A DNA stretch of 46,300 nt from Rhodocyclaceae bacterium (GCA_050305135.1 JBNLET010000242.1:1-46300), one strand, 5' to 3'. Shown: positions 27,585 to 34,665, counted from the stretch's first letter. The notes: generated from the sequence alone by a model not told the origin. Numbers and translations: made by a program.

Positions 27585-29151
27585 TCAGGCCGGCGTGTAG
27601 TGGCTCCAGCGGCGATCGCCGTGCTTGCGCAGTCGGCCATCGCGATGCAGTTTCTTCAGCAGATACGAAGCCCGGCCATGGTCGACCCGCAGCGCCGCCT
27701 GGACGCTGGCGTTGTCCACCCGTCCGGCGCGCCGTGCCAGGTGGAGCAGTGCCTCTTCGTCGCGCTCGGCCCAGCCGCCGGTGACGGCCGGCGCGCGGAC
27801 CGTCTGCCGCTCCGGGAGCCCGGCCGGAGGCGCGTCCCCGGGCGGCGCCGCGAGCGGGCCGAGGAAATGCAGGTGCTCCACGCCGATCGGCTGGCCGCGG
27901 CTGGCGATCAGTGCGAATTCGATCAGATTGCGCAATTCGCGCACGTTGCCGGGAAAGTCGTAGCCGCACAGCGCGGCCAGCGCCTGCGGCGTGATGCCGG
28001 CCCGTTCCCGGCCCATCTGGCTGCTCAATCGCTGCAGGTAGTGTTCGGTCAGCAGCGGGACGTCGTCGCGGCGGTCGCGCAGCGGCGGTAGCGAGATCAG
28101 GTAGCCGGCCAGGCGGAAGTACAGATCCTGCCTGAAGCGGCCGCCGCGCACGCGGCCGGCCAGGTCGGCGTTGGTGGCCGCCACCACCCGCACGTCCACG
28201 CGGCGCGAGGTGGTGGCGCCGAGCGGCGTGACGATGCCGTCCTCGAGCACCCGCAGCAGCTTGGCCTGCAGCCCAGCCGGCATGTCGGCGATCTCGTCGA
28301 GGAACAGCGTGCCGCCATCGGCCTGGCTGAAGTAGCCGTGGCGGTGGCCGGCCGCACCGGTGTAGGCACCCTTGCTGTGTCCGAAGAACTCGGCATCGGC
28401 GAGCTCGGCCGGAATCGCCGAGCAATTGACCGCGATGAACGGCCCGGCGCGCCGCGCGCTGCCGAAGTGGATGGCCCGCGACACCAGTTCCTTGCCGCTG
28501 CCGCTCTCGCCCAGCACCACCACGTTGGTCCGCTCCGCCGCCTGCAGGCTGCGCACCTCGTCCAGCAGCCGGACGGCTGCCGCACTGCGGCCGACGAAGC
28601 CCTCGATGCCCCACAGCTCGGCCTCCTGTCGGGTGATCGCGCTGAGCCGCTGGCCGGTCAGCGAGAGGGCATCCTCGAGGCTCTGGCGACGCTCGACCTG
28701 CTCCTGCAACTCGCGGTTCAGCGAAGCCAGCGCGCGGTTGCGGGCCTCGAGCTCGCGCTGCTGCCGCACGATCGTCAGGTGCGCGTTGATGCGCGCCAGG
28801 ACCTCTTCACGCTGCAGCGGCTTGGAGATGAAATCGATCGCACCGGCCGCGAAGCCGGTCACCTTGCTGGCGGTGTCGGCGAGCGCGCTCATGAAGATCA
28901 CCGGCACGGCGGCCGTGGTGGCATTTGCCTTGAGGCGGCGGCAGACCTCGAAGCCGTCCATGCCGGGCATCATCACGTCGAGCAGGACCAGCGCCGGACA
29001 GTCGTCGGCCGCGAGCTGCAGCGCCTCCTGGCCGGAGGTGGCCACCGCCAGATCGAGGCCGCTGTCTGCCAGGTGCGCCACCAGGACGTCTAGATTGTCG
29101 ACCTGATCGTCGACGATCAGGACCCGTGTCTGCGAAGTCACATGCACCTCT
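27585..29151 (-). CDS. sigma-54-dependent response regulator (REC + AAA+ sigma-54 activator) with atypical C-terminal DNA-binding region
   Basis: I prefer the GTG start at 29151 with a GAGG RBS ([13 protein letters not shown]…); the ATG at 29180 has no RBS. The REC domain has the phospho-acceptor D in [11 protein letters not shown]. Walker A is GESGSGKE and the GAFTGA variant is GAYTGA. The C-terminal ~65 aa is not a Fis-type HTH. Confidence 0.85.
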
Positions 29152-29180
29152 CGCTGGGTTCGGCGCGACCATAAGCGCAT

Positions 29181-29260
29181 ATAGGGATAACATAGGGCGC
29201 ATAAGCGCTATAAGCAGGATATGCCGCCATGGCGTGGAAATAAACCCTTATCCGATCCTC
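29181..29260. promoter_or_regulatory. candidate enhancer (UAS) repeats: ATAAGCGC / GCGCTTAT-type inverted repeats and a TAGGG direct repeat, upstream of the sigma-54 promoter
   Basis: The sequence is ataagcgcatatagggataacatagggcgcataagcgctataagcagg. ATAAGCGC appears three times, once as an inverted copy. Confidence 0.3.
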
Positions 29261-29268
29261 ATCATCGC

Positions 29269-32395: not shown

Positions 32396-32444
32396 CGGCG
32401 ATGGAGCGGACACCACCGATGGCCACCGACGGATCCAGCCGACC

Positions 32445-33041
32445 ATGAAGACCGCGGCTTCAACCGCCAGAAGGTTTTTCGCGTTCCAGCTGACGCTGGC
32501 GGTGCTGCTGTTTTCGCTGCCGAGCGTCAGCTTGGTGGCGCAGTCCTTCGGCGAGCGGCGGGTGCATGTCGGTCTGAAGCTGTTCCGCACGCTGCTGGCG
32601 GCCGACACCGACAACGGCAGCAAGCTCGATGCCGACGGCAAGCTGCCGGTCTACCTGGCCTACGCCGACGATGATCGCGATGCGCGCGACTACGCCCGCA
32701 GCCTGTCCGTCGGCATGAAATCGGTGCGCGGCATCGAGGTCCGGGTGGAGGTGGCCGCGTTGTCGGAGCTGCTGCAGGGCGACATCGCGCCGGCGGCGAT
32801 CTTCGTCGCCCAGCCCCTCGAGGATGCCGAGATCGCGCAGCTGGTACGCTATTCGATCGAGCGCCGGGTGATCGTCTTCTCGCCGTTCGAAGGCGACGTC
32901 GAGAAGGGTGTGCTGGGCGGTATTTCGGTGGAGGCCACGGTGCGGCCACTGATCAACATGCGCACGCTGGCGGCCAGCGGCGTGGCGATCAAGGGTTTCT
33001 ACCTCAAGGTGGTGAAGCGCTATGGCGACGGGGACGACTAG
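32445..33041 (+). CDS. periplasmic YfiR-like (DUF4154) protein
   Basis: 198 aa with a signal peptide (MKTAASTARRFFAFQLTLAVLLFSLPSVSLVAQS). The size and context (TonB-receptor / DUF4154 / histidine-kinase trio) are recurrent. The family assignment is from memory and tentative. Confidence 0.5.
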   Translation: MKTAASTARRFFAFQLTLAVLLFSLPSVSLVAQSFGERRVHVGLKLFRTLLAADTDNGSKLDADGKLPVYLAYADDDRDARDYARSLSVGMKSVRGIEVRVEVAALSELLQGDIAPAAIFVAQPLEDAEIAQLVRYSIERRVIVFSPFEGDVEKGVLGGISVEATVRPLINMRTLAASGVAIKGFYLKVVKRYGDGDD

Positions 33042-34665
33042 CTCATCGCCGTCGCCGCCGTCGGCATTGCGCAAGGCGCTGGCCGGCGGAGCGCGCGCGA
33101 TGCAGCCCATCCTGCTGGCATCCGGCTTGCGCACGCATCTGACGATCAGCGCAATCTTCCTGCTGCTGTTCGCATCCTTCGTCTTTTCGCTCGGCCGCTA
33201 CTGGCAAGGCACGCTGGAACCGCGGCTCCACCTCACCGCCGAGACCCAGGCCAGGATCCTCGCCCAGTCACAGGCGGCCGCGCTGGTCGAGGCGATCGAG
33301 CACGGCCGGTCCGATCGGCTGCGGGAGCGGCTGTTCGATCTGATGCAGGAGATCCTGATCGTCGAGGATCCCGCCACCGGCGGGCGCATCGTGCTCGGGC
33401 TGGGCCTGCAGATGGACTACGAGTCGGTGCCCGTGGCGCGGGGCTCGGTGGATCTGCATGAGGGCATCAGTCGCTGCGGGCGCTGCTTCAAGGCCTCGAT
33501 ACCGCTGATCGGGCAGAGCGGCCAGTTGCTCGGCGTGGCGGACTTCCTGCTCAGTCCGCGCTACTTCGACACGCTGGCCGCCGAAATGCGCTCCAAGCTG
33601 ATCGCCGAATCGAGCATCGCGATGCTGCTGATGGTGGTGGTGTGGATCACGATGCTGGTGATGTTCCATCGGCTGCACAAGGCCAAGAAGGCGATCGAGG
33701 CCTCCGACCGGGCGAAGACCCGCTTCATGGCCAACGTGACGCACGAACTGCGCACGCCGCTCAATGCCATCCTCGGCTACACCCAGCTCTACAAGCAGGA
33801 TCGGGACCTGATGGCCAGCCACGGCCAGGGCATATCGTCCATCGACCGCAGCGCCGAGCACCTGCTGCTGATGATCAACGACATCCTCGACTTCTCGCGC
33901 ATGGGCGAGGACAACCTGGTGCTGCATCCGAGCGAGGTCGCGCTGGCCGGCTTCCTGTCCACGCTGGTCGAAATGACCGAGGTGCGGGCACGGCTGAAAG
34001 GCATTCGGCTGGAGCGCCGATTCGAGCCGGCGCTGCCGGCCGTCGTCCAGTTGGACGACAAGCGTCTGCGGCAGGTCTTGCTGAACCTGCTCGGCAATGC
34101 GGTCAAGTTCACCGAACGAGGCTGCGTGATCTTCGCGGTCGAGCGGCTCGACAAGCGGGGCGGCAAGACCGCTCGGCTGCGTTTCAGCATCCGCGACAGC
34201 GGCATCGGTATCGGCAGGGAGGAACTCGACAGCATCTTCATCGCGTTCCGGCAGCTGGACAATTCGATCACCCGCGCAGAGGGGTCGGGCCTGGGGCTGA
34301 CGATCAGCCAGCAACTGGTCGGGCTGATGGGATCCCAGCTCAGGGTCGAAAGCGAGCCGGGCGTCGGCAGCCACTTCTGGTTCGACATCGTGGTGCCGCT
34401 GCTGGCCGAGGCGGCGCAGCCCGAGGCACTGCCGTCCGGGCCCGAGCCGCCCGCCGGGCCCGGTCTTCGCCTGCCGCCCGCCGGCTATCTGGAGTCCCTC
34501 GCCGAGCAGGTCGGCCGCCACAACGTGCTGGCGGTCCGATCGCTGCTGGGCGAGCTGGAAGATCGGCCGGAATACCGCGAATTCCTGGCCTACGTGCAGC
34601 CCTTCGTGCGCAGCTACCGCTTCCGCCATCTGCTCGACTGGCTGGAGCGGGAAGCGAAGCAGTAA
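33022..34665 (+). CDS. membrane sensor histidine kinase (2 TM + periplasmic sensor, HisKA, HATPase_c)
   Basis: 547 aa. The H-box is FMANVTHELRTPLNAILGY, and the N, G1 and G2 boxes are LLNLLGNAVKF, DSGIGI and GSGLGL. The start at 33022 overlaps the upstream gene by 20 nt; an alternative ATG is at 33100. Confidence 0.8.
   Translation: MATGTTSSSPSPPSALRKALAGGARAMQPILLASGLRTHLTISAIFLLLFASFVFSLGRYWQGTLEPRLHLTAETQARILAQSQAAALVEAIEHGRSDRLRERLFDLMQEILIVEDPATGGRIVLGLGLQMDYESVPVARGSVDLHEGISRCGRCFKASIPLIGQSGQLLGVADFLLSPRYFDTLAAEMRSKLIAESSIAMLLMVVVWITMLVMFHRLHKAKKAIEASDRAKTRFMANVTHELRTPLNAILGYTQLYKQDRDLMASHGQGISSIDRSAEHLLLMINDILDFSRMGEDNLVLHPSEVALAGFLSTLVEMTEVRARLKGIRLERRFEPALPAVVQLDDKRLRQVLLNLLGNAVKFTERGCVIFAVERLDKRGGKTARLRFSIRDSGIGIGREELDSIFIAFRQLDNSITRAEGSGLGLTISQQLVGLMGSQLRVESEPGVGSHFWFDIVVPLLAEAAQPEALPSGPEPPAGPGLRLPPAGYLESLAEQVGRHNVLAVRSLLGELEDRPEYREFLAYVQPFVRSYRFRHLLDWLEREAKQ

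Follow-up and report, generated by a model that had tools for sequence, protein, structure and literature searches.

If a sigma-54 activator is transcribed divergently from an operon encoding a diguanylate cyclase, an outer-membrane receptor, a periplasmic protein and a membrane histidine kinase, do these genes form one signalling module, and what switches it on? This question is raised by positions 27585–34665 of a 46.3-kb stretch of DNA from a Rhodocyclaceae bacterium (GCA_050305135.1 JBNLET010000242.1:1-46300; 68% GC), hereafter referred to as the window. Open reading frame (ORF) listing and Pfam and NCBIfam scans of the window, with boundaries refined by the public NCBI gene calls for the identical contig and by the junction sequences, gave five genes: a sigma-54 enhancer-binding protein (EBP) on the minus strand and, on the plus strand, a REC-GGDEF protein, a TonB-dependent receptor (TBDR), a protein of YfiR fold and a histidine kinase. 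This content and its domains, proposed in an initial annotation made from the DNA alone, are borne out by the Pfam matches and by motifs read in the translations, the YfiR part being assigned by fold. As an architecture, sigma-54 control of the operon and a two-branch output (sigma-54 transcription and cyclic di-GMP, c-di-GMP) are well supported. We further consider it probable, with some reserve, that the locus is an autoregulated module in which the YfiR-like protein acts as a periplasmic gate.

The profile of this small periplasmic protein was scanned against one genome per species, which yielded 80 loci. In 75 of them the YfiR-like gene is followed by a gene that starts with one specific PAS/LapD-like sensor domain, the order TBDR, YfiR-like gene, sensor gene is seen in 42, and the whole layout (divergent EBP, then REC or REC-GGDEF, TBDR, YfiR-like protein and kinase) is kept in 24. 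These 24 same-layout loci span Rhodocyclaceae/Zoogloeaceae, Cellvibrio, Thalassolituus, Oceanobacter, Marinobacter, Shewanella, Bowmanella, Aliikangiella and others, and exactly one kinase is conserved across them. The TBDR, the YfiR-fold protein and the membrane kinase, already regarded as a unit, thus form a conserved trio by synteny. The intergenic gaps in the operon of the window are short, and a GTGA overlap joins the REC-GGDEF stop to the TBDR start. The genes had been described as overlapping or abutting throughout, which holds for this junction but not for the kinase: according to its NCBI call it starts at 33100 and therefore does not overlap the YfiR-like gene, which ends at 33041. 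Lysobacterales and Desulfobacterales contain rearranged versions of the module, often devoid of the EBP. The order in Lysobacterales/Rhodanobacteraceae (L027, L028, L040, L043, L047–L049, L051, L060, L061, L064, L065 and L080 in our locus numbering) is divergent REC, YfiR-like protein, sensor kinase, REC, REC, REC-GGDEF and sometimes then TBDR, with no sigma-54 activator and a sensor domain without the CxxC motif described below.

What, then, drives the operon? A -24/-12 element of correct spacing had been placed about 62 bp upstream of its first gene, at 29269–29284, and an element is indeed present there on the plus strand: TGGCCCGCTTTCTGCA (TGGCCCG-N4-CTGCA) has GG and GC doublets 10 nt apart (GG-N10-GC), is co-oriented with the operon and is separated by 61 nt from the likely ATG (29346). 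A consensus scan of the window does not by itself single it out, as a loose -24/-12 pattern occurs 11 times (4.5 expected) and 15 sites are as close to the 17-nt consensus as TGGCCCGCTTTCTGCA is (8.7 ± 3.5 in shuffles); its significance comes from position, orientation and conservation across orthologous loci. In the 25 intergenic regions compared here and below (the window and the 24 same-layout loci), a TGG-N9-TG element is found on the operon strand in 25/25 and on the opposite strand in 1/25 (shuffles: mean 5.4, maximum 11), and the strict form TGGY-N8-YGC is present in 22 of the 25, versus 1.0 expected. The spacer bases vary between loci, so that it is the element, not the surrounding sequence, that is conserved. 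The proposed pairing of a sigma-54 promoter with the divergent EBP is therefore conserved in 24 independent loci from two proteobacterial classes, and on the strength of this comparison we take the predicted promoter to be real. A scan of the region for sigma-70 consensus promoters and intrinsic terminators found none. A second, weaker GG-N10-GC element (TGGCCCTTGCCGCGCG, 29305–29320) lies 36 nt downstream of the main promoter; it belongs to a 10-nt direct repeat of the -24 region (29265–29274 and 29302–29311) and is not conserved in the closest relative checked.

Further upstream, an unbiased count of the 7-mers preceding the -24 element in the 25 regions brought out TATAAGC (37 occurrences versus 0.45 expected), ATAAGCG (28 versus 0.36) and, also among the top 7-mers, CTATAAG. 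These heptamers, enriched 60–80-fold, belong to the consensus CTATAAGCG, which is present in 81 copies in the operon orientation and 16 in reverse, with 2–5 copies per locus, 60–125 nt upstream of the -24 element. Spacings between copies cluster at 9–11, 19–22 and 30 bp, i.e. at multiples of about 10 bp, which puts the copies on one face of the helix. In the window, the predicted upstream activating sequence covers 29170–29217 on the plus strand and consists of phased direct repeats of this family, with good copies at 29170–29178, 29200–29208 and 29209–29217 and degenerate ones at about 29180 and 29191; over the full 46.3 kb, the heptamers occur here only, plus once at 45935. The repeats are likely activator binding sites, to which the EBP would bind. 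Note that a site resembling those of integration host factor (IHF; YAANNNNTTGATW, at most one mismatch) lies about 31 nt upstream of the TGG in 17 of the 25 loci, all of them gammaproteobacterial (L008, L015, L018, L023, L025, L029 and 11 more), at a fixed position.

The EBP (27585–29138, minus strand; REC, Sigma54_activat and AAA lid by Pfam) most likely starts at the GTG at 29138, rather than at 29180 where the longest ORF begins, because a Shine–Dalgarno sequence (GAGAGG) lies 5 nt upstream and the orthologue alignments begin there. It contains a REC of PleD type (approximately 28788–29123) and an AAA+ sigma-54 interaction domain with its lid (approximately 27867–28595; PF00158, Sigma54_activat, E 1.5e-60, plus AAA_lid_14). 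The Walker-region motifs GESGSGKE and LFLDEI can be read in the translation, and so can the GAYTGA loop that had been announced; the orthologues have GAYTGA in 14 cases and GAFTGA in 10. The C-terminus (approximately 27588–27794) is winged-helix-like according to weak profile matches: Pfam detects no Fis-type helix-turn-helix (HTH_8) in the EBP, the last 90 residues weakly match HTH_27 (0.0043) and MarR_2 (0.026), and a PDB profile search with this C-terminus returned weak winged-helix proteins and nothing else. A recognition helix, RASYLLKKL, and a wing, GERRW.YY, are invariant in 18 EBP orthologues from both classes; this invariance fits the near-invariant CTATAAGCG motif that the domain is presumed to recognise.

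The mechanism that we favour would run as follows: (i) the kinase would read the periplasm via its PAS/LapD-like domain, which carries a CxxC motif; (ii) this domain would be controlled by the YfiR-fold protein encoded just upstream, as YfiN is by YfiR; (iii) the kinase would phosphorylate the two PleD-type receivers of the module; (iv) the phosphorylated EBP would bind the phased CTATAAGCG repeats through its winged-helix domain and activate the promoter at 29269–29284, thereby raising expression of the whole sensory operon (positive feedback) and probably affecting its own divergent gene as well; (v) the phosphorylated REC-GGDEF protein would make c-di-GMP. The TBDR would most likely import a ligand into the periplasm, to be sensed by the YfiR-fold protein and/or the kinase domain, which would make the operon a ligand-induced uptake-and-signalling unit.

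How well do the periplasmic components fit this scheme? The small protein (32445–33041, plus strand; 198 residues, Cys-free, with an invariant SPFEGDVEKGVLGG motif) had been labelled YfiR-like. Neither Pfam nor NCBIfam gives this label to the window protein (PF13689, DUF4154, is absent even at E 10), and its profile found no YfiR among PDB sequences; the label is upheld by the predicted fold and by weak PF13689 matches (E ≤ 1, the best at 7e-6) among the homologues, of which 23 out of 28 have one. The structural model (mean predicted local distance difference test score, pLDDT, 90.9) matches the YfiR structures 4ZHU, 4YN7, 5EB1 and 6IKK in Foldseek with probability 1.0 and a target-normalised template modelling score of 0.73–0.77, E being about 1e-5 for the first three. 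A fold match to YfiR structures without a family match of its own points to a protein of predicted YfiR fold that belongs to a divergent branch. The mature part is Cys-free in 24/28 homologues. Within the family, one stretch, FSPFEGDVEKGVLGG...VRPLINM, hardly varies and greatly exceeds the remainder of the protein in conservation; it is a candidate interaction or ligand surface.

The membrane histidine kinase (33100–34665, plus strand, NCBI gene call; 521 residues) is composed of a first transmembrane segment, a PAS- or LapD-like periplasmic sensor domain and a second transmembrane segment (33124–33675), followed by HisKA (about 33712–33906) and HATPase_c (about 34054–34389), both recognised by Pfam, and by a conserved C-terminal domain not assigned to a known family (34465–34662). 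Pfam detects no HAMP in the kinase, and no Pfam model matches the sensor domain. The family of this domain was gathered from the module loci, a full-length kinase search and an exhaustive profile search; a word-indexed homology search with the kinase's N-terminal domain alone gave no matches. With 269 clusters among the 1.84 billion representatives of the exhaustive search, the domain is rare; it is always N-terminal and mostly fused to kinases, often hybrid kinases with a histidine phosphotransfer (Hpt) domain in distant relatives, and three distant loci have it joined directly to GGDEF, in the manner of YfiN. Its predicted fold appears PAS/LapD-like, with WalK in the YycH complex as the best Foldseek match. 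The YfiR-binding periplasmic domain of YfiN is likewise predicted to be LapD-like (PMC3838380). Homology with the YfiN domain at the sequence level was considered and rejected after comparison of the profile with the N-terminus of E. coli YfiN (DgcN): the agreement is one of fold class. The invariant CxxC of the sensor domain (33475–33486) could be a redox or metal site. The presence of this motif in the kinase and the lack of Cys in its YfiR-like partner are the reverse of the canonical situation, in which YfiR has two disulfides.

About a third of the kinase orthologues are hybrid, with a REC inserted before the conserved C-terminal domain. This helical domain of about 65 residues, with the pattern LP..L..L...A..HN[IV]L..R...Y..F...P.V..Y[RQ]F..L..WL, includes a near-invariant His and follows the REC at the place where distant relatives carry a true Hpt. 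An identity as Hpt was rejected, as no Pfam or PDB match was found and an hhalign comparison with Hpt domains from two distant relatives gave nothing; the hints towards Hpt are its position after REC in the hybrids and the near-invariant His alone.

The TBDR (30311–32395, plus strand, NCBI gene call; 694 residues) has a signal peptide, a conserved acidic N-terminal helix, a Plug (PF07715, 6.8e-18) and a 22-strand-type barrel (PF00593, 1.7e-41), and it ends in ...EYRF, an aromatic end; the nearest solved structures, CirA and BtuB (about 1e-19), indicate generic similarity. The initial annotation had raised an N-terminal signalling extension; no STN domain was found, Pfam showing Plug and barrel alone with about 30 residues between signal peptide and plug, so that it is not a transducer of the FecA type. 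The ORF listing and gene calls also show no sigma or anti-sigma gene in the operon. Self-induced receptor operons have precedent, and this, together with the properties of YfiR-fold proteins, is why an import role is favoured. Such proteins are similar to those that bind substrates and are able to take up small molecules as ligands (PMC4887326).

The mature N-terminus of the TBDR, however, suggests another role. It starts with an acidic amphipathic helix followed by ATQT(K/R)MNADYVPGMV (family pattern EL.AL..LLEE.T..AT.T+MNADYVPGMV), and its ATQTRMNADYVPGMVSVL region is among the most conserved segments of the protein (0.83 versus a mean of 0.59). Upon ligand binding or TonB energisation, the TBDR might capture the YfiR-fold protein, for example via the acidic helix, and thereby relieve the repression of the kinase, a surface relay that would operate without STN. 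The gene order TBDR, YfiR-like, sensor shared by 42 of the 80 loci is consistent with this, as is the precedent of YfiBNR, where an outer-membrane protein sequesters YfiR (PMC4655355). On the other hand, the TBDR has no periplasmic domain comparable to the Pal-like domain of YfiB, its conserved N-terminal segment is in part the ordinary TonB box and plug start of TBDRs, and in the Lysobacterales variants the receptor gene sits at the distal end of the cluster or is missing from the locus as fetched. We therefore regard capture by the receptor as possible but unlikely. It would lead to a bolder proposal, namely a third kind of TonB-dependent cell-surface signalling, in which ligand or TonB would expose the acidic helix of the TBDR, the helix would capture the Cys-free YfiR-fold protein, and the CxxC kinase thus freed would drive both the diguanylate cyclase and a sigma-54 activator belonging to a REC-AAA+-winged-helix class not described before; in this proposal the C-terminal His domain of the kinase might be an atypical phosphotransfer or docking element. 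The other two kinds are FecA/FecR/ECF-sigma (extracytoplasmic function sigma factor) and the SusC-type hybrid two-component systems. This proposal is speculative, and a physical relay from the outer membrane is something that we would hold with doubt.

Does the kinase serve both branches, as the favoured mechanism has it? The REC-GGDEF response regulator/diguanylate cyclase (29346–30314, plus strand, with an alternative GTG start at 29325) has a PleD-family match in NCBIfam and a GGDEF domain (PF00990, E 1.9e-51) whose RPGD I-site and GGEEF active site can be read in the translation. The almost identical block shared by its receiver and that of the EBP had been interpreted as a sign of duplication and of a single kinase feeding both. 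This block is a generic PleD-type β3–α3 signature, nearly the same in Caulobacter PleD, so the duplication argument falls: the best PDB match of the EBP receiver is PleD (1.5e-32, versus 2e-14 for NtrC), and both receivers are about 48–50% identical to each other and to Caulobacter PleD. EBP and first-gene receivers of one locus are 48% identical and those of different loci 46.5%, which rules out recent duplication or homogenisation by gene conversion. Within lineages, identity across loci is 64% for the EBP receivers and 61% for the first-gene receivers, and the two form old, separate lineages.

The idea of one kinase and two receivers is nonetheless compatible with a different, module-specific feature. 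All 24 EBP receivers and all 24 first-gene receivers carry the α1 motif P-x-N-L-D-V/I-L, with the signature N-x-D-V/I/L, compared with 12 of the 138 other receivers of the same loci, and these 12 are mostly from hybrid versions of the same kinase or from further copies of the module. In two-component systems, α1 carries partner specificity, so that the shared motif gives indirect support to one kinase serving both receivers. Alternatively, the kinase might serve one receiver only, that of the REC-GGDEF protein or that of the EBP, and a kinase whose gene lies at another place might phosphorylate the other; in that case the branches would share a locus without being driven by one sensor. Such an arrangement would agree with the membership of both receivers in a very large PleD-type subfamily, in which their similarity to one another does not exceed that to Caulobacter PleD, with the Lysobacterales variants that retain the YfiR-like protein, the kinase and REC-GGDEF without any EBP, and with six loci that retain the EBP and lose the GGDEF domain. 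The conservation of a single kinase in the 24 same-layout loci and an α1 signature common to both receivers and rare elsewhere speak against it, and we deem it distinctly unlikely.

The same six loci (L009, L011, L013, L023, L026 and L033), from Thalassolituus, Aliikangiella, Oceanobacter and relatives, carry as their first gene a stand-alone receiver of 121–138 residues with the same α1 signature in the same position, whereas the EBP, the promoter and the repeats are kept in all 24. One could thus imagine that the first-gene receiver chiefly serves to tune the EBP branch, as a phosphate sink or connector, c-di-GMP being secondary and the real output being sigma-54 transcription of the operon, possibly with other targets. 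However, GGEEF is intact in 18 of the 24 loci and the RxxD I-site is retained in most, an argument that catalysis is under selection, and the distant EBP-less variants still keep REC-GGDEF; we accordingly give this reading little credence. Finally, that the -24/-12 match is due to chance and the operon is read from an unrecognised sigma-70-type promoter is extremely improbable: comparable matches are common in the GC-rich window and the site deviates from the consensus, but its position and strand are conserved in 25/25 loci while the spacer bases vary, there is always a sigma-54 activator next to it and no sigma-70 consensus was found in the region.

Several observations weigh against the favoured mechanism, in which the YfiR-like protein gates a kinase with two outputs. 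The promoter of the window has three consensus mismatches and is statistically undistinctive by itself, and the IHF-like site was looked for and not seen in the window or its Rhodocyclaceae relatives. Six of the 24 loci have a stand-alone receiver instead of REC-GGDEF, so that the c-di-GMP output is not essential to the module and has been dispensable in evolution. The receiver signature argues for a shared partner without proving phosphotransfer. The YfiR-like profile matches E. coli YfiR weakly (hhalign E 0.0024, probability 12%), and between the sensor domain and E. coli YfiN there is no similarity in sequence. The transport role of the TBDR is a putative one. Lastly, in the literature on DUF4154/YfiR with TonB receptors, kinases or sigma-54, we found neither a description of such a cluster nor a published experiment on any member of the module.

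The surroundings of the locus can be described briefly. Upstream, 22999–27556 contains mltG(yceG)-tmk-holB-pilZ-tatD and then a secreted ankyrin-repeat protein, whose gene (26921–27556) is convergent with that of the EBP. Downstream, from 34818 to 39226 and beyond, are genes for a DUF2170 (YjfI-like) protein, a PspA/IM30 protein and two small proteins, then genes for a 703-residue coiled-coil flotillin-like protein, a zinc-ribbon protein and a 1754-residue DUF3686/AAA protein; this PspA/IM30 cluster resembles a membrane-stress module and has no evident link to the sigma-54 operon. Rfam detects no riboswitch or other RNA family in 27000–35500.

Altogether, the module appears to consist of known parts wired in a new way, widely conserved and apparently unstudied. 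To our knowledge, YfiR has until now been known in a single role, to repress one diguanylate cyclase, which one lipoprotein sets free; in the present loci, an entire branch of the YfiR fold is tied to histidine kinases with a dedicated periplasmic domain, and often also to TBDRs. Such a module would link outer-membrane uptake or surface sensing to sigma-54 transcription and c-di-GMP. Its carriers include Rhodocyclaceae of activated sludge, as well as many marine Gammaproteobacteria, and the floc and biofilm behaviour of these organisms is of practical importance. The comparison also yields a regulatory map (a precise motif predicted to be bound, the promoter and the IHF-like site) for a subclass of activators whose DNA-binding domain is of the winged-helix kind, which makes the system directly testable in cultivable carriers such as Shewanella baltica, Cellvibrio sp. 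NN19, Oceanobacter kriegii DSM 6294, Bowmanella denitrificans and Marinobacter halodurans.

Among known systems, YfiBNR (TpbB)/HmsCDE of Pseudomonas, E. coli and Yersinia share with the module a YfiR-fold gene directly upstream of one for a signalling protein of the inner membrane whose periplasmic domain is PAS/LapD-like, a gene in the same operon for an outer-membrane protein, and a c-di-GMP output. They differ in several respects: (i) the outer-membrane protein of the module is a TBDR with Plug and barrel and not the Pal-like lipoprotein YfiB; (ii) the partner is a HisKA/HATPase kinase without HAMP, accompanied by a separate REC-GGDEF cyclase, and not a YfiN-type cyclase (periplasmic domain-HAMP-GGDEF); (iii) the YfiR-like protein is Cys-free, whereas canonical YfiR has disulfide-forming Cys, and the CxxC is in the sensor domain, which has no detectable sequence similarity to YfiN; (iv) the module adds a sigma-54 branch. 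With NtrC-class activators (NtrC, DctD, ZraR, AtoC), the EBP has in common a REC and an AAA+ domain with a GAFTGA-type loop, a divergent or adjacent target operon, upstream activator sites (predicted in the module) and, in many orthologues, an IHF-like site. In contrast to these activators, its C-terminus is winged-helix-like rather than a Fis-type HTH_8, its receiver is of PleD type, its NCBIfam matches all miss the equivalog cut-offs, and its predicted sites are phased direct repeats rather than inverted ones.

The first-gene protein, like cyclases of the PleD/WspR type, combines a phospho-acceptor receiver with a GGEEF domain containing an RxxD I-site, but it has a single receiver where PleD has two and is encoded by the first gene of a sigma-54 operon that also contains its presumed kinase. 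FecA-FecR-FecI similarly ties a TBDR genetically to a periplasm-facing regulator and to a dedicated transcription factor that induces the receptor operon; the module differs in having no STN, anti-sigma factor or ECF sigma factor and in a transcriptional output that uses a two-component system together with sigma-54. In PfeS/PfeR-PfeA and PirS/PirR-PirA, the imported ligand of a TonB receptor controls that receptor by way of a two-component system, and kinases governed by an extracytoplasmic accessory protein are found in TorT-TorS, LuxP-LuxQ and WalK-YycHI. The logic of these systems is that of the module, i.e. a membrane kinase that reads an imported or periplasmic signal, an accessory periplasmic protein and an induced receptor gene, whereas the module is distinguished by the YfiR fold of its accessory protein, by a sigma-54 EBP in place of an OmpR-type regulator and by an additional c-di-GMP output.

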